This document shows, in pieces, positions 11,060-58,516 of a DNA stretch of 64,000 nucleotides. Position 1 is the stretch's first letter; each line of letters starts with the position of its first letter. Origin of the DNA: a virus; IMG/VR virus record IMGVR_UViG_3300037483_001478, positions 71,989-135,988 of that record; one strand, written 5' to 3'. Made by a program: the position numbers and the translations under genes. The notes beneath the pieces were generated by a model. It saw nothing but the letters and a program-made list of their open reading frames with translations, did no database searches and was not told the origin of the DNA.

Positions 11060-12172
11060 GTGCTTGGTATTCCTGAGAGCCGTTTCTTACCTGCCGTCGT
11101 GGAAACAGTGCGCATCATCAGCGTAAATGTGGAAACATGGACGGTAGACGCGATTTCCGAGTACGGTGAGAAGAAGTTCTACGCCATCCAAATCATGAGT
11201 CCCTACTTCCATTTTATGAACGGGGAAGGGATCTACACCATGCCAGAGGTGGGAGCGCTGGCATGGGTATGCAAGCCCAGCTCGGGCAGCAGGGCCGCCC
11301 CATTCCTTTTGGGGTTCCAAGCACCGTTTGATGAGACCAATGCTGGGTTTAGGGTAAATCGGCCGCCTATGAACCCGGGCGACATCATGATGCGCACCCG
11401 AGACGAAAATTTCATCACCCTTCGCCGCGGAGGGGTAGTTCAGATTGGGGCCAACCCCATTTCTCAGCGCATCTACCTTCCGATCCTCAACTACATCAAG
11501 GACTTCTGCGAGAACTACCAGCTATCTACTTTTGGGGGCGAGATCACTTGGACGACAGAAAGAGTCGACCAGTCGAGCGCAGGAGAAGTGGGTACCCGTT
11601 TTGCCCTCTTGGCTCGCGAGAAGGCCAGTGACCCCCAGCACATAGCCTCTTTGACGATTGGTTCTCATGGCGAGGATAGCGCTACTATACTGGACCTGAA
11701 GGTACTTGCGGCAGGAGCTCCGGGGGCCGTAGAGCAGGTGCGCCTTACCCTTGGCAAGGACGGGAACGTTACTTGGCAGGTTCAGGATTCTTGGGACCTA
11801 ACCGCGCAGGGGTCGGTAAGCGTAACAGCGCAAACTGGGAGCCTGAACCTCAGCAGCCCAGCGGGCGCTACGCAAATAGAGGCGGGAGAATCTGTAGACG
11901 TGAAAGCCGCTACCGACGTTTTGGTAGAAGCTGGAGGTACCAGCACCGACCGGGCCGCTCAGAAGATTGTTGATTCTCCGGTCATTCGATTGGGCAGTTC
12001 GGCGGCAAAGAATCCAGTAGTAAAGGGGTCTAACCTCGTAAGTTTTTTGGATCACCTCATTACAGCGATAGAGGCAATCCAAGCCCCCTCTGGTCCGGTA
12101 GTTGCTACTGCCGTAACGTTGTTGAGGGCCGAACTATCAACCTTGATTTCATCCGGTGTGTTCGTCGAGTAG
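11060..12172 (+). CDS. Baseplate central spike-like protein (gpV/gp5-type OB-fold plus beta-strand repeats)
   Basis: N-terminal OB-fold-like MPEVGALAWV...FLLGF; C-terminal short beta-repeats; ends with PVVKGSNL-type motif. Confidence 0.55.
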   Translation: MLGIPESRFLPAVVETVRIISVNVETWTVDAISEYGEKKFYAIQIMSPYFHFMNGEGIYTMPEVGALAWVCKPSSGSRAAPFLLGFQAPFDETNAGFRVNRPPMNPGDIMMRTRDENFITLRRGGVVQIGANPISQRIYLPILNYIKDFCENYQLSTFGGEITWTTERVDQSSAGEVGTRFALLAREKASDPQHIASLTIGSHGEDSATILDLKVLAAGAPGAVEQVRLTLGKDGNVTWQVQDSWDLTAQGSVSVTAQTGSLNLSSPAGATQIEAGESVDVKAATDVLVEAGGTSTDRAAQKIVDSPVIRLGSSAAKNPVVKGSNLVSFLDHLITAIEAIQAPSGPVVATAVTLLRAELSTLISSGVFVE

Positions 12173-12181
12173 GAGAGGTCA

Positions 12182-14167
12182 ATGCATTCTCAGCCTTTGT
12201 TTCTGGATTCTGCCCTGCTGTTCGAAGGGGCTGAAAAGCTGGCCGGTACTCTTACCCGGCTCAGTGACAATGTCGACACGTGGCCCCAAGAGGTTATTCA
12301 GGAGGCCTACAAGCAGGTACCTTACCTGAGCGACTTTGAGGCGAACGTCGTCCTCGACAAGATTGATGAGGAGCGCGGATTTGCTTTTGGGTCGGTCGAG
12401 GTGCGCCCCAAAACTGCCAAGACCCTCGAAGAGCAGCAGATGGCCGGAGGAGTCAAAGCGCACATCCCCATTATCGTCAAAGAACAGCTCCTGAGCCCCC
12501 TAGATGTGTTCATGGTGGGCAAGCAGTACCACCATCTCACTGAGGGCAAGCTGCGCTCGGCGCTGTTCCAGCCAGACTTCTTTGACGCAACGCGCATGCG
12601 GCCCTACGACCCTTCGCTTGTATACGACCTGCTACCTCCTACCAGGATGGGCGGCGGCATGGGCTCGGGGGTGAAGATGGGCTCGGCAGAGCTGCCCCTA
12701 CTGCCCATGCTGCATTACACCGTCAAGGCAGCGCACAGCGACCGTATGCGGGAGGCAATGCAGGACCCTTCAATCCTAGCGGCCGCTAGCGCTAGCCCTG
12801 AAGGAGTGAAGGCAGCGTTCTTGTCGGCAGCGGGTCTGCAGGTGTCTTCGCCCACAAAGATCGCCGAGGCTTTGTCTGAGCGAATCCGGCCCAATGTCGT
12901 CCAGATTACCAAGCTCGGTTCTCGGCGGGCCCTGGTCAAGTGGGCCAACACCGACATGTACGCGCCCCAGGAAGAGGAAATGCCTCTTTCCACAGCGATG
13001 GACATGATGGGGCAGGAAGACGAGGTCCAACAGCTCGATGCCGACGGCACGATTACCTTGTCCCCCAACCCTGTAGTCAAGAAGACGCTGGAGGCAGAAG
13101 AGGTTGATGTGGCCAAGTCCTTTGGCCTTTGGAAGGTACAAGACGTCACGGGAAATACGCTAGTAGGCTGGGTGTTCCCCAATCTCTTGTCGCTCGACAT
13201 GTCCTCCATGCCCCTGAGCTTATTCACCAATGGCTCTCAGTACGCCCTACAAGGCGACATAGCAGGAGTAGCCGCGGGCAAATCGACGGACATCCCAAAG
13301 GGCATACCGAGGGGGTACGGCGCGCTCTACTACATCGATCACGGTACAGCACGCTGCTTTGTGCCGATGACTGTCAACAACACGTACCGCGGCCCTGACG
13401 GCTTGGTGCGGTACATGGCTCAGACTGACCTCGGTGAGCACGTGATGTTCTCGTTTGCTGACGGCCTGAAGACCGTGGTCAAAACAGGAACAAATGAGTA
13501 CGCAGTACCTACTACCGTTAGCTGGCTGCCCCTTCGGGGACAAACCGAGCTCGTCGAGAACCCCATGGGGTTCTCGAAGGTGGCTAAGTTGACCAGTACG
13601 GTGGAGCTCATCAGCGATGGGGCAACTTGGTCGTACCGCGGGGCAGGGGTGGCGAAACTAGCCTCTTCTCAGACCAAGTTCCTTTCGCGACGCGACGCCG
13701 AGTTCATGGGAGCCTCCCTCGGAGTAGAGCGCTCCTTCTTGAAAGAAGCCCTAGATTCCTCCAAGCGCACAGGCCACCCGGTAGAGTTTGTGGGGGTACG
13801 CCCTATTACGCTGTTGCGGGACAAGCTGGCAGAGGCCAAGTTACAGGTGCAAGGTGACTTGGCCGACCTGCCGGTGCCCATCCACAACTACTTCCTGGTC
13901 AAGGAAGCTACGCTTCTCGATGACGCGCTTACCGCGGACAAGATCCTCGGCCTGGGCTTCATCAACGCCGAGAATGTGGGAACGTTTGTTGACATGCTGC
14001 CGGACCTCGAGCGCACTTCCACGAAGCTGGCGGAGCTCCTCATCGCAGTGCGTATCGGTTTGAAAGATGTCCCTGAAGTAGCGGTTGAGCGTATGCTCAA
14101 AGCCCTCGAGGATGTCATCGGGGGCTTGAGATCTTTGAAGCAACAAGAACAAGTGACCATGCAGTAG
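12182..14167 (+). CDS. Hypothetical virion-associated protein (661 aa)
   Basis: Long ORF with AGGAG RBS in the structural operon; contains EKLA and AKVAKL motifs. Confidence 0.75.
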   Translation: MHSQPLFLDSALLFEGAEKLAGTLTRLSDNVDTWPQEVIQEAYKQVPYLSDFEANVVLDKIDEERGFAFGSVEVRPKTAKTLEEQQMAGGVKAHIPIIVKEQLLSPLDVFMVGKQYHHLTEGKLRSALFQPDFFDATRMRPYDPSLVYDLLPPTRMGGGMGSGVKMGSAELPLLPMLHYTVKAAHSDRMREAMQDPSILAAASASPEGVKAAFLSAAGLQVSSPTKIAEALSERIRPNVVQITKLGSRRALVKWANTDMYAPQEEEMPLSTAMDMMGQEDEVQQLDADGTITLSPNPVVKKTLEAEEVDVAKSFGLWKVQDVTGNTLVGWVFPNLLSLDMSSMPLSLFTNGSQYALQGDIAGVAAGKSTDIPKGIPRGYGALYYIDHGTARCFVPMTVNNTYRGPDGLVRYMAQTDLGEHVMFSFADGLKTVVKTGTNEYAVPTTVSWLPLRGQTELVENPMGFSKVAKLTSTVELISDGATWSYRGAGVAKLASSQTKFLSRRDAEFMGASLGVERSFLKEALDSSKRTGHPVEFVGVRPITLLRDKLAEAKLQVQGDLADLPVPIHNYFLVKEATLLDDALTADKILGLGFINAENVGTFVDMLPDLERTSTKLAELLIAVRIGLKDVPEVAVERMLKALEDVIGGLRSLKQQEQVTMQ

Positions 14168-21366: not shown

Positions 21367-24348
21367 ATGATCGTTAAGTTGGGCCCCACGCCCTCAGGTA
21401 AGGACTATTCGGACGATATCCCCAACCTTCCTGCAGAGGAGCGCTGGCAGGAGGACACGGCCGTTTACGTAGAGGACAAGCAAACAGAGCAGATACCTCT
21501 CCTGCCGTCCAATTTTGTGGAGTTTGCCTTCCGTATGCCTAAGGCGGGAAGGCTGGCCGACTTCACGTTCAAAAACCGCGAGTACCTGCGAACCATTTAT
21601 GACTCGCCTGCAAAGCGTAAGCTATTGATGGCGGGTAGGCAGGTTGAGAAATCGGTGTGCCTCCACACGCCCATTTTGATGGCAGACGGGAGTGAGAAGC
21701 CTGCAAAAGATATCCGGCTGGGGGACCGTGTTGCCACTATGTTGGCAGATGGCACAACGATTTCAGAACGCAAAGTGGTGTGGGTGTCGCAGCGCTACAC
21801 CAAGCCCTGCGTGCGCATCCATACAGATACGGGCAAGGTGTGTGACGTAGCAAAGACGCATCCTATGCGTCTTTGGGAGCGTTGGGCGGACGCAGGTAAT
21901 GTGCGACCTTCCCAGAAGGTCGCAGCAGCCCGCAGATCAGGGTCGTTTACGAAATGCCCTGTGCCAGCGGCTCGCGCGGTCCTTACCGCCTACTATCTTT
22001 GCGATGACGCCTTGTTACAAGGGTCGCGGCGAGAGGTTACGTCTGATCGGGTTTTCGAGGAGTTTAACCAATGCGCGCAGGGCCCCAAATCTTTGTGGGG
22101 GTTACCTGTAGGCAGCACCCAGTTAAGCGACTGGTTGGAAGCTGACGGGCTGCTAGGCAAGAAACCTGAAGAGATGGACGCCCCTACTTGGGCTTTTCAG
22201 CTATCGAAGAGCCTCACTGCCCTATTTCTGAACAAGTTGTGGGACGCCGCGGGTGAAGTCAGTCAAGAGATCACAGAAAGACCTTCTTTACGCCTCACCC
22301 TCGTTTCCTTGAAGCTGGCGAGTAGTGTTCAGAGACTGATGCTCAAGTTTGGCATTCCTACGAAGATAAAAAGCAAGCGGGTGCTGGAAGGCCGTTATGT
22401 GGGGGAATGGCGGTACTATGTGTACGTCGTGGGCAAAAAGGGAGTAGTCAACTTCTTCGACTGGGTGGGGCTGGCCCGCAAGAAGGCAAACTGCGGGCAT
22501 ATAGCTAGAATCACGCGGGGAGAGGACGACAGTCTTCCTAAGGAGTCTAGCAGGCTTATCCGCCGCATATTTTCTACCAAGAAGGCATTTCTCCAGAGGA
22601 GAGGCACGTGTTTTGAGAATCCTGCGGGCCCTTTTAGGAGGCCTCCGTCTCTTGAAGTCCTTCAAAACTACGCGGACTTCTTCGAAGCAGAACACTTTGA
22701 TCGGGAGCTCGTGGAATACCTGCGCAGGCACATAGAGTCAGATCTGTTTTGGGACAGAGTGAGCCGTGTGGAAGACCTAGGTGTTAGAGAGTGCGTAGAC
22801 TTCGAAGTTGAGGAGACGCACAACTTCATAGCTGGGGGTCTAATAACACATAACAGCACACTTTTAGGGAACATGTCCATATCTTACATGGCGCTTCAGC
22901 CATTTTTTCGCGTGGTATACGTGAGCCCTTCGCACACCCAGACGAAGGTATTTAGTCGCGACCGCATCAAGGAGCCAATCGATACCTCGCCTTTCTTGAA
23001 GCAGCTCACGAATTCGAAGCTCTTGGCAAATATTTTTGAGAAGAAGCTCATCAACCACTCTCAGATTACGATGCGGTTTGCTTTTTTGAACGCAGACCGC
23101 GTTCGGGGGAATCCTGCGGACAAGGTCATTGTCGACGAATTCCAGGATATCCTCCTCGACAATGTGCCCGTCATCGAGGAGTGCTGCTCTCACTCAGAGT
23201 ACAAGTTGTTTCTCTACGCCGGCACGCCGAAGTCCCTAGATAACGCCATCGAGCATTATTGGATGCGCTACTCCACGCAGAATGAGTGGGTGGTTCCTTG
23301 TGACCGCCATGGCACACCAAAGAACCCTGGTTCTTGGCATTGGAATATTCTCGATGAGACGAACATAGGAGAAGAGGGGCTCATCTGCGACAAGTGCGAA
23401 GCTCCCATACGGGCTGACGACCCTCGGGCTCAGTGGGCCTCACTCAACCCTGATCCCAAAGTAGAAAAGCCCTATGAGGGGTATCGTATACCTCAGTTGA
23501 TGGTCCCATGGATCGACTTCGAGGATATTCGCGACAAGCAGAAGAAGTACAGCCGAGCCAAGTTCTACAATGAAGTGCTAGGGCGCAGCTATGACTCAGG
23601 CACGCGCCCGCTAGTACGCTCAGACGTCCAGCGCAACTGTTGGAGTGAGCTGTCGATGACCTACTACAGAGAGGTCATTCAGTGGTCGTCGCAATACCCC
23701 ATCTTCATGGGGGTGGACTGGGGCTCGGGAGAAGGATCCTTCTCCGTGATGGTCATCGGAGGCTATCTGCCGATCGCACCGGATTTCATCACATGGTTTT
23801 ACGCCCATCGGTTTGAAGGAGTGGAAACAGAACCGCGTATTCAGCTCGATATTATAAAGAAGCACATTGTTGATTTCAACGTACGGCATGTAGGTGTTGA
23901 CTACGGCGGCGGTTTTTGGCCCAACGACATGCTCCTCCGCGAGTTTGGAGCGGAGCGCATCAAAAAGTACCAATGGGTGGGTAACATCAAGAAAAAGGTG
24001 CAGTTTGAGCCTCGTCTCGGGGTTCCCCGCTACCTATGTCACCGCACCGAGGTCATGTCCGACATCTTCAATGCCATCAAGCGAGCCAACGTCTACCGAT
24101 TCCCTCGGTGGGAGGAGTTTGAAGACCCTTACGCCATGGACATGCTCAACATATTCTCGGAGTATAACGACCGCATTCGGATGAACGTGTACCGGCATGC
24201 CCCCGGGTACCCAGACGATACCTTTCACGCGATAGCTTTCGGTACGCTAGCCTCCTTTTTCACTAAAGTGCGGCCTGACATCATCATACCTTCCAAAGAG
24301 GTCGACCGAGATCATTATGACCCTCACGAGGAGAATGACATCATCTAG
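21367..24348 (+). CDS. terL: Terminase large subunit (GpA-like), intein-containing
   Basis: Spliced Walker A region GRQVEK|STLL, Walker B VIVDEFQD, YAGTPK, nuclease-domain MGVDWG and GVDYG, C-terminal PDDTFHA. Confidence 0.92.
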   Translation: MIVKLGPTPSGKDYSDDIPNLPAEERWQEDTAVYVEDKQTEQIPLLPSNFVEFAFRMPKAGRLADFTFKNREYLRTIYDSPAKRKLLMAGRQVEKSVCLHTPILMADGSEKPAKDIRLGDRVATMLADGTTISERKVVWVSQRYTKPCVRIHTDTGKVCDVAKTHPMRLWERWADAGNVRPSQKVAAARRSGSFTKCPVPAARAVLTAYYLCDDALLQGSRREVTSDRVFEEFNQCAQGPKSLWGLPVGSTQLSDWLEADGLLGKKPEEMDAPTWAFQLSKSLTALFLNKLWDAAGEVSQEITERPSLRLTLVSLKLASSVQRLMLKFGIPTKIKSKRVLEGRYVGEWRYYVYVVGKKGVVNFFDWVGLARKKANCGHIARITRGEDDSLPKESSRLIRRIFSTKKAFLQRRGTCFENPAGPFRRPPSLEVLQNYADFFEAEHFDRELVEYLRRHIESDLFWDRVSRVEDLGVRECVDFEVEETHNFIAGGLITHNSTLLGNMSISYMALQPFFRVVYVSPSHTQTKVFSRDRIKEPIDTSPFLKQLTNSKLLANIFEKKLINHSQITMRFAFLNADRVRGNPADKVIVDEFQDILLDNVPVIEECCSHSEYKLFLYAGTPKSLDNAIEHYWMRYSTQNEWVVPCDRHGTPKNPGSWHWNILDETNIGEEGLICDKCEAPIRADDPRAQWASLNPDPKVEKPYEGYRIPQLMVPWIDFEDIRDKQKKYSRAKFYNEVLGRSYDSGTRPLVRSDVQRNCWSELSMTYYREVIQWSSQYPIFMGVDWGSGEGSFSVMVIGGYLPIAPDFITWFYAHRFEGVETEPRIQLDIIKKHIVDFNVRHVGVDYGGGFWPNDMLLREFGAERIKKYQWVGNIKKKVQFEPRLGVPRYLCHRTEVMSDIFNAIKRANVYRFPRWEEFEDPYAMDMLNIFSEYNDRIRMNVYRHAPGYPDDTFHAIAFGTLASFFTKVRPDIIIPSKEVDRDHYDPHEENDII
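21652..22854 (+). mobile_element. Intein (401 aa, Ser1) in terminase Walker A region with degenerate LAGLIDADG domain
   Basis: N-terminal block SVCLHTPILMADG aligns to C-x4-T-x-V-x3-DG when Ser is residue 1; ends HNFIAGGLITHN, with Ser +1. Confidence 0.9.
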
Positions 24349-43963: not shown

Positions 43964-45271
43964 ATGGCATCCCGATCTTTTGGGACCGAGTCCCCTGTCA
44001 TACCTCACTTGTCCAAGAATGAGCTTGCCGATCTCCGAGGGGACGTCGAGGCCGCTTTCCTCGTCTTGGAGGCTAAGACCGGGTTCCCTACGGTTGATCG
44101 GTCGACTCGGCTGCTGCTGTCGGATCTCCCCGGCCATTCCAGTAGCGTGGGCTCGGCGGTCACGCTGGTGGGGAGAGCTCTGCTACAGGGCCAGACCACT
44201 GCTACGCTGCAGCTGGGCACCGGAACGGCCCAACTCAATTTCACGGCCAATCGACCGGGAACCCCCGGAAACGATTTGTCGGTAGAGATCGTTCAAGGCG
44301 ACGGCGCGCTGGCAGTCAGCGTCCTTGGCAACGTCATCACGATCACTTTGGCTGTTGGCGGTAGCACCGCGGCTCAAGTGGTGACGGCCTACAACCTTGT
44401 GGCCGCCGCGGTACGTCTTGCCCAGATCGCGCACGACGGTGTGGCCGGCGCAGGTACAGTCCTCGTGGCTGCCGAGACCAACCTTGCAGGGGGTGTGGGA
44501 AGCGGCTTGACTGTGCTCCTCGGAGGAGTCGAGCAAGACGTGGTGGCAGTGGTGACTGATACCAGTATCTCCATGCTGGTAGTCGACGTGGGGTCTTACG
44601 GCCTTGGGGACTTTTTGGCCTTGGCGGTAGAGTCCAACGGAGTGCTTACGGATGAGCTCTCTGTGGAGATTGTGGCGGATCCCCCGCTACTCTATTTGGC
44701 GACGGGCGCAATCGACTTGAACGACGACCCCAGTGCCGTTGCTCTTCAGGGGGAAAGCTTGCTCGAGGGACAAGCGACCGCAGCTCTCACCTTGGGCACC
44801 GGTACAGCCTCTTTGGCCTTCACTGCCAACCGCCCAGGCACGCCGGGCAATGACATCACGGTGGCCATTGCCCAAGGGGCTGGTGCTCTTGCCGTAGCTG
44901 TTGATGGCACTGACATCACAGTCACGTTGGCGGTTGGCGGCAGCACTGCGACTGAGGTCAAGAGCGCCTATGACTTGGTGGCAGAGGCAGTGGCTCTGGC
45001 CCAGGTCGCGGTCTCTGGTGGAGGCGGGGGCACCGTCTTGATCACAGAAGACGAAGCGGCAGTGCCCCTTGAAGGCGGCATTGGTGCAGGATTCGCCGTC
45101 TATGTGGCCGGCGTAGCCCAAAGCATCACTGATGTCGTCACAGATACGGCTATCGCAATGTCCGTGGACGACTTCACAGGGCTCACTGCCGGAGACGCAG
45201 CAGGTGTGTACGCAGTGTCGAATGGGGTCACTTCCAGCCTTGTGAGCATGGTGGTGGTCAATACGGCCTGA
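43964..45271 (+). CDS. Tail-associated protein with two copies of a ~140-aa beta-rich domain
   Basis: AGGAG RBS; repeats LL[QE]GQ.TA.L.LGTGTA.L.FTANRPGTPGND. Confidence 0.7.
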   Translation: MASRSFGTESPVIPHLSKNELADLRGDVEAAFLVLEAKTGFPTVDRSTRLLLSDLPGHSSSVGSAVTLVGRALLQGQTTATLQLGTGTAQLNFTANRPGTPGNDLSVEIVQGDGALAVSVLGNVITITLAVGGSTAAQVVTAYNLVAAAVRLAQIAHDGVAGAGTVLVAAETNLAGGVGSGLTVLLGGVEQDVVAVVTDTSISMLVVDVGSYGLGDFLALAVESNGVLTDELSVEIVADPPLLYLATGAIDLNDDPSAVALQGESLLEGQATAALTLGTGTASLAFTANRPGTPGNDITVAIAQGAGALAVAVDGTDITVTLAVGGSTATEVKSAYDLVAEAVALAQVAVSGGGGGTVLITEDEAAVPLEGGIGAGFAVYVAGVAQSITDVVTDTAIAMSVDDFTGLTAGDAAGVYAVSNGVTSSLVSMVVVNTA

Positions 45272-47413: not shown

Positions 47414-47764
47414 ATGATGAACACTGACGCTCCTGCTCCTCCAGAAGACATCACAGACGAAAACCTAGATCGCCCAGACGTCCGCTTTTACCTAGGCACG
47501 CTTGCAGCCAAAGCCCTTCGTGACGTGGGCCAGGTAACCTTCGTGAAGCGCCTCGATGGTGGGGTGGCTTGGGCCAATCATGTTCATGTATTTATCCATC
47601 CTCAGGCCGTTCCTGACCCTACCTTGATGGCTTCCCAGTACCGGCTGGTGCGGCCGGTACTGGGAGACGGCCGGCCGCAGTTTGTAGCATGGCAAGATGG
47701 CGTGCTTTGGGAGATCGAATTCCTAGAACCAGAAAGGGGCTCTGATGCAAGCAATAGCGAATAG
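47414..47764 (+). CDS. Hypothetical protein
   Basis: GGAG RBS; first gene after the hairpin. Confidence 0.6.
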   Translation: MMNTDAPAPPEDITDENLDRPDVRFYLGTLAAKALRDVGQVTFVKRLDGGVAWANHVHVFIHPQAVPDPTLMASQYRLVRPVLGDGRPQFVAWQDGVLWEIEFLEPERGSDASNSE

Positions 47765-48677
47765 CCCACACGGGCTACGCATGTACCCTGACTACCCTTT
47801 GAACAGTATTCTGGTTGAGCCTGGATTCAACAACCGAAAGAGTAACAAGCCGGATGCCGCCCTTTTAGAAAGCATTCGCCGCATTGGTGTAAAAGAAGCG
47901 TTGCACGTGCGCAGCAAGCCTGAGACGCGCGACGCAGTCTACTTGGTAGAGGGCCACCGCAGATACCATGCCTTGCGCATGCTAGGCATTGGAGCAGCTC
48001 CGGTCATTCACCATGGGGAGTTGTCGGACAAGGCGGCGCAGACCTTGAGCGTTGTCCTCAATGCCAGCAGAACAAAGAAGCTCTTCACCAAGAAGGAACG
48101 GTGCGAAGCTTTCGCTGCTATGCACGAGAATGGGTACGATGTGGGGTATATATCTCAGGTGACAGGGTACCCCACTCATACGGTTGCCGAGCACATACGC
48201 GCCTTTTCGACCGTTCCCGAGATCCAGGAAGCTTTAGCCAAAGATATGCAAGAGGGCGGTATTTCTTCTCGCGTAGCTTCGAGGGCTGCGGACCTGAGCC
48301 CCTTAGCACAGCGTCGCATCGTCCCGCTACTCAAGGGCGCGCCTCGCCAGAAAGGATTAGAGATCGTGCGTCAAGCAAAGGCAGCGGAAGGTAGGGCATC
48401 TCGAGGCCGTAAGGCCACAGTGCGGTTACCCCTTTCTGCAGAAGAGGAAGCAGAAATCTACCGCGTGGCTTCTGATTACAGAGAGCGCTGCCAGGCCATG
48501 GAGGCTATTCTTCGCCGACGCATCAATGCTGGGGCCAAGAACCCCATCTACGCTGCGCAGCTCGACATCATCAAAGTGATCCGAGGGCAAAAGAAGGTCT
48601 CTGATGTATTTCCCGACACAATAGGCAACTATGACGAACCGCGGAAGAATAACTACCTCCCACCCCACATGGTGTAG
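47745..48677 (+). CDS. ParB/Srx-like N-terminal domain protein with HTH region
   Basis: FNNRK, LLESIRRIGVKEALHV, LVEGHRRYHAL. Confidence 0.8.
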   Translation: MQAIANSPHGLRMYPDYPLNSILVEPGFNNRKSNKPDAALLESIRRIGVKEALHVRSKPETRDAVYLVEGHRRYHALRMLGIGAAPVIHHGELSDKAAQTLSVVLNASRTKKLFTKKERCEAFAAMHENGYDVGYISQVTGYPTHTVAEHIRAFSTVPEIQEALAKDMQEGGISSRVASRAADLSPLAQRRIVPLLKGAPRQKGLEIVRQAKAAEGRASRGRKATVRLPLSAEEEAEIYRVASDYRERCQAMEAILRRRINAGAKNPIYAAQLDIIKVIRGQKKVSDVFPDTIGNYDEPRKNNYLPPHMV

Positions 48678-48679
48678 CT

Positions 48680-49336
48680 ATGCGGCATCTTGGCATCTTT
48701 CTTTCGCGCTATTGGACCTTTGTGCTGATAGCAACGATCTCGAGCGCTCTTGTTGCGTACGCGATGTTGGCTGCGGTTGAGCCTATACCTTTAGCAGCGC
48801 AAGCACTTCTTTGCGCGGTTCCTGGCTTCATTTGGCTGTTCCTTCTAGAAGAGGTGATTCGGTGGTGGAAACAGGCACCTGACATCATTACGGGCCTGGG
48901 CGTACAGGCTTGGCTAGCTCCAGGAGTCGTAGTCCTGGAGAAACAAGTAGAGGCTTTCTACGATTGTATCTTTGAGGACATAGCAGACCTCATTTCCTAC
49001 GTGAGCAGCAAGCAAGCAGGGTCGGATTGGCCTCTTAGCCCTACTGCTATCCAGGATAAAACCTACGAGATGGTTAGTAGGACTAAGCTCATGTTTGAAG
49101 CGGAGCCCTTGCAACTTCCGGATAAGCCTGGAGAGACCTTCGCAGGCCTATGCTACGGCAACACTTTAGTGGTGGAGTGGACAGGACGTTTGGGGGCAAC
49201 AGCTTTACCCCACGAGACAGCGCACCAAGTATGTCGATTCATCACAGGAAAAGGGGACGCAGACCACGAAGACACCTATATCTGGAGTTCCTGGTTGAAT
49301 CGCGTGAGGCAAAAACTGGCAAAGGAGATGCTGTAA
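48680..49336 (+). CDS. Membrane-anchored putative zinc metallopeptidase
   Basis: Two N-terminal hydrophobic helices; LPHETAH (HExxH). Confidence 0.6.
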   Translation: MRHLGIFLSRYWTFVLIATISSALVAYAMLAAVEPIPLAAQALLCAVPGFIWLFLLEEVIRWWKQAPDIITGLGVQAWLAPGVVVLEKQVEAFYDCIFEDIADLISYVSSKQAGSDWPLSPTAIQDKTYEMVSRTKLMFEAEPLQLPDKPGETFAGLCYGNTLVVEWTGRLGATALPHETAHQVCRFITGKGDADHEDTYIWSSWLNRVRQKLAKEML

Positions 49337-49722
49337 TGGCTGGAAATACCAAGTTGATAGGGTTTGGGTCGGGCAAAGTGTTTCTTGAGAGGTGGGGAGA
49401 ACGGACAGAGGTCGAGCTTCCTTCTTCCTCGGTAGCTTCCTTGGTGGGGGCTTGTAGGGAGCAGCTACCGAGTGCCCCTAACAGGCAACCTCGTTCAGGG
49501 TCTACGAGCCTGAGCTACGATGGCCATTTTGGAGTCATCCGAGCGTTTATTTCCCCTCAGGACTGCGAGTCTATTGGAAAGCTATTAGAGCTCGTGGCGA
49601 ACCACCACGAGCCTACCGACTCTCAATACGAGACGGCCAAGGCTTGGGCTGAGGAACTGCTTGGACTGGCCCAAGAGCACAAAGATTACCTCAACACTGA
49701 CAACGAGCCGGGGGTGTCATGA
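49336..49722 (+). CDS. Hypothetical protein
   Basis: TAATG overlap with AAGGAG RBS (track start 49150 is likely too far upstream). Confidence 0.6.
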   Translation: MAGNTKLIGFGSGKVFLERWGERTEVELPSSSVASLVGACREQLPSAPNRQPRSGSTSLSYDGHFGVIRAFISPQDCESIGKLLELVANHHEPTDSQYETAKAWAEELLGLAQEHKDYLNTDNEPGVS

Positions 49723-50243
49723 TAGTTGGGCTGTTTGACGTAGATGGGGTAGCCGCAGCCTTTGTCAACCATTTGCTTGACGAGATCGGTAGTAAGTTGG
49801 CGCCGTCAGACATCAAGCGCTGGAACATTCGCGGGTGCCTTCCTCCCGACGAGGTGGACCGCGCTGATGAGGTACTCTCGGACCCCCATTTTTGGATGAC
49901 CCTGCCTCCTGTGCCTGGATCCCAAGAAGCTATAGAGGCCTTACAGGCCGCAGGGCACGACATCCACTGGGTTACCTCCCCCTACGACCTGCATGGCTGG
50001 GACGCCATTAGGCGGTCTTGGTTGAGGCGCAACTTTGACACTCCGCCAGACCATGTCACCATCACCGCGGCAAAATACCTTGTAGACGGCGATTACTTCG
50101 TGGACGACAAGCTGGTTCACGTTCAGAGATGGGCAGCCTGTCGCCACAAGCCACAACGTGCGTTTCTTTTTGAAACGCCTTACACCTGTTTGGAGCTCTG
50201 GGAGCCCAAAATCTCATGGGAGAAGATCAAGTCATGGGTATAG
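49719..50243 (+). CDS. 5'(3')-deoxyribonucleotidase, HAD/NT5C family
   Basis: FDVDGV (DxDG), FWMTLPPVPGS, WVTSP, W..RNF, FVDDK. Confidence 0.85.
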   Translation: MIVGLFDVDGVAAAFVNHLLDEIGSKLAPSDIKRWNIRGCLPPDEVDRADEVLSDPHFWMTLPPVPGSQEAIEALQAAGHDIHWVTSPYDLHGWDAIRRSWLRRNFDTPPDHVTITAAKYLVDGDYFVDDKLVHVQRWAACRHKPQRAFLFETPYTCLELWEPKISWEKIKSWV

Positions 50244-50773
50244 TGAATGTGCTCAATTTGGAAAAGATCCAGGAAGAGCAGAAGGCTTGGGTAGCTCACA
50301 ATTTTGCAGGCCGTCACAGTCATCAGCCATACCTGGGCATCATCGAGGAGCTCAACGAGCTCCTCGATGTGTCGCGCACGGGGCCCGAGGCAGAGATCAT
50401 CGACGCGGTGGGCGACACGATGATTTACCTTCTGGACTACTGCTCGGTGCATGATTGGCCTGTAAGCACCGTGATGAAGGTATCTGCTCACGCGGTGCCT
50501 TCAGACTCTTACCCATCCTCGTGGGTGGATGCCGCACTGCGCCAGTGCGCCCGTGTTGCCCACTACCAGCTGAAACACGAGCAAGGGATCCGCGGAATGG
50601 ACGGCAAGGTCGCGTTTGCGCAGGCAGCGCAGCCGCTTGTGGCGAGCATCGTCAATTGCCTCAACCGCTACTGCAATTCAGTGGGCCTTGACCTCAACCA
50701 CGCAGTGACTGTCACTTGGGAATCTGTCAGCCAGCGCGATTGGAAGCGCAATCCAACCACCGGGGTCGCCTGA
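50234..50773 (+). CDS. MazG-like nucleotide pyrophosphohydrolase
   Basis: GIIEELNEL...EIIDAVGDTMIYLLDYC; C-terminal TWESVSQRDW. Confidence 0.7.
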   Translation: MGIVNVLNLEKIQEEQKAWVAHNFAGRHSHQPYLGIIEELNELLDVSRTGPEAEIIDAVGDTMIYLLDYCSVHDWPVSTVMKVSAHAVPSDSYPSSWVDAALRQCARVAHYQLKHEQGIRGMDGKVAFAQAAQPLVASIVNCLNRYCNSVGLDLNHAVTVTWESVSQRDWKRNPTTGVA

Positions 50774-51897: not shown

Positions 51898-51959
51898 CAT
51901 CTACTTGACCCTACTACCCAATCTTGGGATAGATAGGCTAACTTACCCGGAGGCTATTT

Positions 51960-52157
51960 ATGGCAGACGAAACCACTGAAAGAGCAAAATCCTTTGTTGT
52001 AGAATCTCGCATGCGTGCTTTCCTCAAAGAGCACGAAATGAACACCGACGTCCATCTGGCCGACGCGCTCTCGCAAGAGGTTCAGGGCGTCCTTGAGACG
52101 GCAGTGGTGCGCGCGAAAGAGAACAACCGCAAGACGGTTCGTCCTATCGACTTGTAG
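51960..52157 (+). CDS. Bacterial-type histone-fold protein (Bd0055-like)
   Basis: 65 aa; VVESRMRAFLKEHEMNT...DALSQEVQGVLETAVVRAKENNRKTVRPIDL; GGAGG RBS. Confidence 0.85.
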   Translation: MADETTERAKSFVVESRMRAFLKEHEMNTDVHLADALSQEVQGVLETAVVRAKENNRKTVRPIDL

Positions 52158-52172
52158 CGCACCCCACGCCCG

Positions 52173-52203
52173 GGTGGAGACGGCCCGCTGCGCCGTCTCC
52201 ACC
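52173..52203 (+). terminator. 12-bp perfect hairpin after the histone gene
   Basis: GGTGGAGACGGC / GCCGTCTCCACC, no U-tract. Confidence 0.5.
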
Positions 52204-52221
52204 TCACCACCGGAGAACCTC

Positions 52222-58400: not shown

Positions 58401-58516
58401 CTGGGGCCTGCATTGCCAGCACGGAGATTGGGGCGACAGCACATTGTGTGGCAGTGACTGCGACTCAAATCTTTTGCACCATTGAGGGTACCTGGACAGT
58501 GGACGTGGGGTGCTGA
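55451..58516 (+). CDS. 1021-aa tail-fibre/adhesin-like protein with N-terminal hydrophobic leader and internal repeats
   Basis: AGGAGG RBS; Thr/Gly/Ser/Asp-rich; fibre-type motif DGTAALPSYSFSSDPNTGMF; duplicated ASTHALG and TEYLRLD blocks. Confidence 0.7.
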   Translation: MGALLAFLIATMPVAQVAEGSFDNPVYGGGGGGSSSSTTATEVGTCEDGAVLYNINGIQSCGLGADTAAADKELQPGQDAWEFATTNTTGGDSVLSGGLGTHRLNDVTDASCDSGVDTITYTVDGTPYVRTAGTSWTVGVSDADTCANIAADAAANVPGLEDSTCVGTDVGLTGSAHTLDVQSSDNACAQEVNGTDGSVVVRSKQLVAPSGNSSGNIGLLMGPGSTAGISQTADALHFYASGSLRATLGSSWALGNNIDLTQSGSSAYLGNLTTALCLDNGNCAASTHALGAGDVLAGQSLEVDGDIYADGDIVLPTGQRVYLDGAASANYVYSDGTSIYMQSPTTFLRVGANAIFTNSNVSTTLQGNSDNIQLTQYTATATTPGDTVATLTHRGYNGSATRELFQLITYADDSTPASEESHTTFSVYENGVQTEYLRLDGSDSSQAILASRPVQFGSGAYIIGANGETIDNATDGKWTFTGTGGANNEVLVIDLETTSNTAAFSSPTGISLYTFDQTLFASGNVISTGYVRAGPAANIWWNTRSEMQSKEDGQWSVENAANTAGATLDIDDYPDTFVVKDQAGTGDGNLVTTGYTQFGTGAQLLEGTTTSSVILQQSDSPTNNVCLNTNGDTLRVYTGTCSTFTQVLMGNGYFSNATGGLIELWRADGTPNNDDVVGTLQMNSYDSGLASQNYATVSANIEEVTAGDEDGSLVFSVFDNGSLTEYLRLDATDGVESIVASKPIALLQGDAIVFDRDFESNDFIHASANNIITLRTNGTITYQTSATQLWVRQDLQIEDSKAIRGEAAKINIGGTAASTHALGDDDLHINTNTEVDGFLYTDDQVLAQDGTAALPSYSFSSDPNTGMFSVAADNLRFVAGGTYKMGVNTAGPYMGANVNMQAFALQGATQIVTNYTEASSPVALNQFSSGSNFTNTGATAEVEFQPAGANPVGTWFDFSVIDTDGIQVTAAAGETIQIGALGGAGACIASTEIGATAHCVAVTATQIFCTIEGTWTVDVGC

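Follow-up and report, generated by a model that had tools for sequence, protein, structure and literature searches.

A putative face-to-face histone encoded by a large uncultured tailed phage

The histone gene, its neighbours and the phage genome

The window, by which we mean the whole stretch of 64,000 nucleotides analysed here, contains a short gene for a histone-like protein within a group of genes for DNA and nucleotide metabolism (Table 1). The open reading frame runs from ATG to TAG and carries the motifs quoted in the earlier note, which had described it as a 65-aa protein with a strong ribosome-binding site; an identical 65-aa product was obtained by an independent gene caller from a Logan contig of SRR12684493. 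The GGAGG element that had been reported is present, and GGAG or GGAGG is found upstream of the histone gene in all 10 relatives too. An open frame on the opposite strand of the gene was unsupported and was taken to be a shadow. The DNA-handling cluster proposed for this region was borne out, since the ParB-like, DUF932-like, and DinG/YoaA helicase neighbours were all recovered. The DUF932-like gene gave no direct Pfam match and was linked through the ESM Atlas (0.98; TM 0.92) to a cluster in which 18% of the members are DUF932 proteins. A 700-aa form of the helicase starting from the TTG at 52093 would overlap the histone gene and was considered unlikely.

Table 1. Features at the histone locus and elsewhere in the phage genome. 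Positions are those of the window unless an L number is given.
Feature	Position	Strand	Remarks
Face-to-face (alpha3-truncated) histone gene, 65 aa (predicted type)	51960..52157	+	ORF, PDB matches, models; short acidic N-terminal tail, ~residues 1-9; histone fold, 10-65
GGAGG Shine-Dalgarno	51949..51953	+	6 nt before histone ATG
GC-rich hairpin	52172..52204	+	13 pairs (12 Watson-Crick, 1 G-U), 7-nt loop, no U-tract
DUF932-like gene (phrog_1362), 367 aa	50794..51897	+	Upstream of histone, likewise in three relatives
DinG/YoaA-family helicase, 657 aa	52222..54195	+	Downstream of histone
Remaining DNA/nucleotide block	47745..50773	+	
ParB-like protein	47745-48677	+	Within the block
Two genes of no assigned function	within 47745..50773	+	
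NT5C-type nucleotidase	49719-50243	+	Within the block
MazG-like pyrophosphatase	ends 50773	+	Within the block
Single-chain fused beta-beta' RNA polymerase, 2068 aa	4844-11050	+	
Large terminase	21367-24348	+	Intein containing a LAGLIDADG domain
Head-region protein, 966 aa	26444-29344	+	InPase domain (Pfam E = 3e-36)
IS605-type TnpB gene	L005:3078-4313	+	Best relatives 72-78%
Single tRNA-Tyr	L005 near 12099-12187		

The 12-bp hairpin that had been noticed downstream of the gene proved to contain 12 Watson-Crick pairs and an additional G-U pair. Its folding energy was -27.5 kcal/mol (z = -2.96), and one of 200 shuffled sequences was equally stable. A classical intrinsic terminator was rejected, as the stem has no U-tract and was not called by terminator prediction; we regard the hairpin as a candidate 3' mRNA stabiliser or a processing/termination signal. 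Stems of at least 13 pairs were present within 80 bases downstream of 7 of the 11 clade histone genes, two of these seven being near-copies, compared with stems of at least 12 pairs after 4.5% of 179 other genes in this genome. Because long hairpins trail so many of the clade's histone genes, it is plausible that the histone mRNA is abundant and stabilised, and the conservation of the ribosome-binding site and the hairpin would fit a small, highly expressed gene. Promoter prediction called no sigma70 promoter directly upstream of the histone gene. In three relatives (L134, L135, L136), the extended -10-like sequence GGTATA(A/G)G was found ~35-50 bases before the histone start, and several relatives have short GC-rich hairpins immediately ahead of the ribosome-binding site, which suggests an own promoter and a 5' stabiliser in those relatives.

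The source virus record of this uncultured, 177-kb phage comprises 176,864 bases. Its first 100 bases recur at the end, with a terminal overlap of ~117 bases, so the phage genome is probably complete. Genes for a large terminase and a baseplate wedge protein, together with weak matches to portal and tail-sheath proteins, place the histone carrier among the Caudoviricetes; it is a tailed phage, and its tail is probably contractile. Replication genes include DNA polymerase A, DnaB, DnaG, RecA, and an SNF2-type helicase. Other Pfam matches among its open reading frames are Cpn10, a sigma70 region-3 protein, an amidase, RNase HII, thymidylate kinase, and a pyrimidine-dimer glycosylase. The single-chain RNA polymerase was common to 18 of the 20 relatives tested (41-56% identity) and was ~30% identical to those of Vibrio phages D181/D148/D69 and Salmonella phage Arash, making it a good marker for the clade. 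The phage falls within an uncultured clade of tailed phages, 180-200 kb in size, that encode a beta-beta' RNA polymerase of their own.

Fold and subfamily of the protein

The product had been described as a phage-encoded bacterial-type histone, and the fold was upheld by PDB matches, an AlphaFold2 model, and Foldseek. In a phmmer search of the PDB, the protein matched HLp (E = 3.5e-5), HTkC (1.2e-3), and Bd0055/HBb (2e-3). The AlphaFold2 model (pLDDT 91) consisted of helices at residues 15-24 and 33-54 and a single turn at 62-64, and Foldseek ranked HLp first (rmsd 0.7 Å over 56 residues), HTkC second, and Bd0055 fourth. Because phmmer, AlphaFold2, and Foldseek agree, the histone fold is not a chance resemblance; Pfam alone remained below its cut-off (CBFD_NFYB_HMF, E = 0.05). 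The three-helix fold expected earlier held in one part, the histone fold itself, and failed in the other, the third helix being a single turn instead of a full helix. Together with the ungapped match to HLp, the model corresponds to the alpha3 histones, in which alpha3 is cut to 3-4 residues and alpha2 is shortened. An archaeal nucleosomal (HMf) type was rejected, because it needs a 10-residue alpha3, and comparisons with that type were weak (HPhA, rmsd 3.1 Å, E = 0.24; NF043032, 13.6 bits where the cut-off is 50).

Schwab et al. (2024) distinguish face-to-face (FtF) histones from bacterial dimers by two residues that lock the dimer-dimer interface, an Asn and an Arg that pairs with the C-terminal carboxyl; the Bd0055-type "bacterial dimers" are defined by the absence of R48 and N52 of the FtF profile (PMC11390915). 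The FtF tetramer signature is kept in the phage histone as R51-x3-N55-x-R57-x-T59-x4-D64-L65(COOH): R51 and N55 occupy the R48/N52 positions, the chain ends after Asp with L65-COOH, and R57, T59, and D64 form the RxTxxxxD motif (the RD clamp and the L2 threonine). In alpha1, the basic residue R19 stands at profile position 16 (Arg in 13 of 51 homologues), with R17 at position 14, K23 at position 20, and Glu (E15) at position 12. The HLp tetramer residues R49/N53/R55 and its RD clamp R55-D62 correspond without gaps, at an offset of +2, to R51/N55/R57 and R57-D64. In HTkC, mutation of the residue equivalent to R51 (R45A) converts the tetramer to a dimer (10.64898/2025.12.06.692711).

A four-copy ESMFold2 model of the phage histone scored 0.87, compared with 0.01 for the best control, with a contact agreement between runs of at least 98% and a partner pLDDT of at least 87. 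The model contained the dimer interface plus dimer-dimer contacts at residues 50-51, 54-55, 57, 61, and 63-64, which is the FtF interface, so that a tetramer joined by alpha3 and the last part of alpha2 is confidently predicted. In a calibration on two copies, which carries over to four copies only roughly, 20 of 30 solved homo-pairs passed the scoring mark, as did 1 of 23 single chains. Given this calibration and the existence of solved FtF tetramers, the result shows likeness rather than binding, and it may reflect memory of the solved 9F2C/9QT0.

The earlier assignment to a Bd0055-like subfamily was overturned by these data: R51 and N55 are present where Bd0055 has Ser and Asp, the chain ends at L65, and HLp (0.7 Å) and HTkC outrank Bd0055. 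The protein also departs from the bacterial dimers in that a tetramer interface is confidently modelled for it. A Bd0055/HBb-type dimer that bends or coats DNA would account for the 34-35% identity to Bd0055/HBb, the rmsd of 0.9 Å, and the RKTVxxxD loop in common, but the presence of R51 and N55, which are absent from bacterial dimers, the FtF-like stop of the chain right after D64-L65, the higher rank of HLp and HTkC in both sequence and fold, and the FtF dimer-dimer interface built by the model make it highly improbable. Sequence and models thus identify the protein as an alpha3 histone of the FtF (HLp) type, not the Bd0055 type, and tetramer wrapping is a better model than dimer bending or coating because of R51, N55, and the L65 end.

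The closest known system is HLp of Leptospira perolatii (PDB 9QT0/9QT1/9QT2; Hu et al. 2025, PMC12701072), which aligns ungapped over residues 10-64 and shares the tetramer residues, the RD clamp, the chain end, the five main DNA-binding positions, and a short N-terminal tail. The phage histone differs in being phage-encoded, 28% identical in the structural alignment, and net acidic, with A13 changed to E, G29 to V, and K54 to N. HTkC of Thermococcus kodakarensis (PDB 9F2C; PMC11390915; 10.64898/2025.12.06.692711) has the FtF fold (rmsd 1.1 Å) and the Arg-to-carboxyl tetramer lock; in contrast to the phage histone, it is archaeal, tailless, and cellular. Bd0055/HBb of Bdellovibrio bacteriovorus (PDB 8FVX, 8CMP, 9EZZ) and the viral BBVH class likewise have the alpha3-truncated fold, but they are dimers and lack the R-x3-N pair. 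The "phage histones" of Schwab et al. 2024 (A0A2E7QIQ9; VTTH of Liu et al.) are likewise phage-encoded with an alpha3 fold, but they carry a C-terminal tetramerisation helix and no RxTxxxD, whereas the histone described here has the motif and no C-terminal extension.

Liu et al. (hLife 2025, PMC13681535) described 84 bacterial-like histone-fold proteins in Caudoviricetes and defined the viral face-to-face and Bd0055-like classes from predictions only. Their viral FtF class is likewise encoded by Caudoviricetes from IMG/VR-type data and predicted to form tetramers, with N-terminal tails of 5-40 residues; the tails are described as lysine-rich, whereas the tail here is ~9-10 aa long and acidic. 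The phage histone is a further member of the viral FtF class and not a new kind of protein. What is added here is the phage clade context, the gene slot, and the distribution of HU, which the passages of Liu et al. considered here do not tie to viral FtF histones.

Distribution of histone and HU genes, and the host

A word-indexed protein search returned nothing beyond the histone itself, and an exhaustive search gave 85 other matches with a best single-domain identity of 48%. There was no match in 50,697 GenBank phage records. A pattern search of IMG/VR yielded six loci, all from phages sharing genes with this genome, and marker searches independent of the histone added ~25 further relatives of up to 202 kb. 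The FtF histone was found in 10 of 29 records. Five of nine near-complete genomes, this genome counted, encode it, three of the nine having entered the set through the histone; among the seven near-complete genomes reached through markers, three carry it. Since it is missing from four of the nine, the histone gene is dispensable at the clade level. Each of the two main subclades in the marker tree includes histone carriers. In this genome and three relatives, the gene follows the DUF932-like gene, either as its immediate neighbour or with one gene in between. DinG comes next after the histone slot in G001, and G002 and G025 have the equivalent slot without a histone. In G028/G029 the histone follows RecA, and other carriers hold it elsewhere. 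The full FtF motif is present in 10 of the 11 clade histones, which are mostly 21-55% identical, and its retention at such identities indicates selection on tetramer formation.

Proteins of the HU/IHF family were encoded by seven of the nine near-complete genomes. No HU was found in this genome, which together with G012 makes up the HU-free pair, and both carry a histone. The four near-complete genomes without a normal histone all encode HU, and three genomes hold both, so that all nine have a histone, HU, or both. This complementarity was not significant (hypergeometric 10/36 = 0.28, calculated by hand, with genomes sampled in part through the histone) and is suggestive only, a lead and not a result. 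In relatives G001, G002, G009, G017, G018, and G022 (L143-L148), HU/IHF genes often lie beside DNA polymerase A and RecA; between these two genes, this genome has a 58-aa Cys/His-containing open reading frame (L004:5719-5895, minus).

The earlier suggestion that the gene hints at a histone-encoding host lineage could not be sustained, as every route to the host failed. The best cellular matches (GTDB, 80 best matches) came from Peribacteria and DPANN archaea with 38-55% identity, none exceeding 55%, and such identity across 55 residues says little about the host. Histone trees on 60 columns gave no resolution of host affinity, and a single origin of the clade histones was neither shown nor rejected (AU p = 0.063). 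The relatives of TnpB (best 72-78%) gave no host indication. The HU of G002 was 55-65% identical to proteins of Nitrospirota, Myxococcales, Caldithrix, and others, and 6 of 201 Myxococcota genomes had a histone match (34-41%). Among the 80 best GTDB matches (L018-L097), FtF-type histones were frequent in Candidatus Peribacteria/Peregrinibacteria MAGs. The top-scoring database matches (L038, L063; P0003-P0007) were proteins of 118-150 aa built of two FtF-like histone domains in tandem; some come from Actinomycetota (Nitriliruptorales), and all rank high because the two domains add up.

DNA-binding surface and possible role in infection

Five HLp residues, R59, K21, K15, S14, and K17, account for 52% of the simulated binding energy (PMC12701072). 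The corresponding residues R61, K23, R17, S16, and R19 are kept or conservatively changed in the phage histone. Three HLp DNA-contact positions from the crystal or the simulation are altered (A13 to E15, G29 to V31, and K54 to N56), and Asn at the site of N56 is common (8 of 51 homologues). The protein has a net charge of -2 (core -1, pI 5.6), compared with a homologue median of +3 (n = 51), and its core is the third most acidic among 51 aligned homologues. The N-terminal tail of ~9-10 aa is acidic, with four D/E, one R, and one K in residues 1-10; the tails of most clade orthologs are lysine-rich, and two orthologs are tailless. Judged from the sequence, DNA binding is likely; because of the contact changes and the acidic chain, it may be weaker than that of HLp despite the five kept positions. 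Two more histones with Glu15 (L008, L011) were found on short contigs with phage-like genes, namely a PD-(D/E)XK nuclease and AAA_24, and a dCMP deaminase and peptidase M15, implying that the acidic variant may recur in phages.

We consider it likely that the protein acts as a homotetramer that wraps ~50-60 bp non-specifically and organises phage DNA in the infected cell. Two head-to-tail dimers would close into a toroidal homotetramer via R51, N55, R57, and the free carboxyl at the end of the chain, on L65. Contacts to the DNA backbone, with no sequence preference, would be made by the basic rim (S16, R17, R19, K23, K58, T59, and R61), and the tetramer would wrap ~50-60 bp, as demonstrated for HLp and HTkC. 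The histone would be made in quantity through strong translation and a probably hairpin-stabilised message, and would serve as the phage's own DNA-architectural protein in intracellular replication, recombination, and transcription; in relatives, HU-like proteins may take the architectural role. The analysis establishes the gene, its modelled fold, the conserved residues, and the distribution of the histone; we infer tetramer formation and DNA wrapping from the homologues HLp and HTkC, and can only infer the role of the histone during infection.

The same tetramer might be mainly defensive, either shielding incoming or replicating phage DNA from restriction/CRISPR nucleases or compacting and silencing the host nucleoid. 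This explanation is compatible with DNA organisation by a wrapping tetramer, the patchy presence in the clade fits an accessory, host-dependent gene, and HLp is reported to protect ~60 bp and, on expression in E. coli, to rearrange the nucleoid (PMC12701072). However, the gene lies in a replication/repair block (DinG, ParB-like; RecA in G028/G029) and not among small early host-takeover genes, and a non-specific wrapper cannot alone distinguish phage from host DNA, so we consider a mainly defensive function unlikely.

The acidity of the protein raises another explanation, namely a decoy subunit that co-assembles with a host FtF histone, weakens host chromatin, and binds DNA poorly itself. Its net charge of -2 and its acidic tail, where viral FtF histones have been described with lysine-rich ones, would be consistent with this, as would E15 and V31 at DNA-contact sites beside fully kept oligomer residues, and two relatives encode frankly acidic histone-fold paralogs. 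Yet the protein retains the five main DNA-binding residues, most orthologs in the clade carry a net positive charge (+1 to +6), cellular-type homologues also reach net -1 to -3, and nothing points to a histone in the host; we therefore regard a decoy as quite unlikely. If it were true, the phage would have built an anti-chromatin weapon from a histone, with the acidic paralogs of the two relatives as its extreme form.

These acidic proteins with a long loop 1 insertion occur in 2 of 23 records, G001 (L139:1369-1686, +) and G026 (L138:1384-1647, +), and not in this genome, where a second histone-fold partner was sought and not found. They have no R-x3-N pair, and their best PDB match is HTkC (E = 0.12, weak). 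In G001, the protein bears a D/E tail and accompanies a normal FtF histone; in G026, no other histone-like gene was found. Judged from sequence, they could possibly be decoys or partners.

Structural genes lie on either side of the DNA block (tail sheath at 43964, virion protein at 58510), as might be expected if the histone were a virion core protein condensing DNA in the capsid. Terminase-driven packaging, however, translocates bare DNA, and the protein lacks K-x-A/S, a proposed head-protease motif whose longer form occurs in five other open reading frames. A virion core function is thus very improbable.

Phage FtF histones have already been catalogued, and none of the papers found reports an experimental test of one. 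With its histone present, absent, or accompanied by HU, the clade offers a natural comparison panel for two questions: do large phages that encode an RNA polymerase use a histone to organise their DNA, and can histone and HU replace each other?
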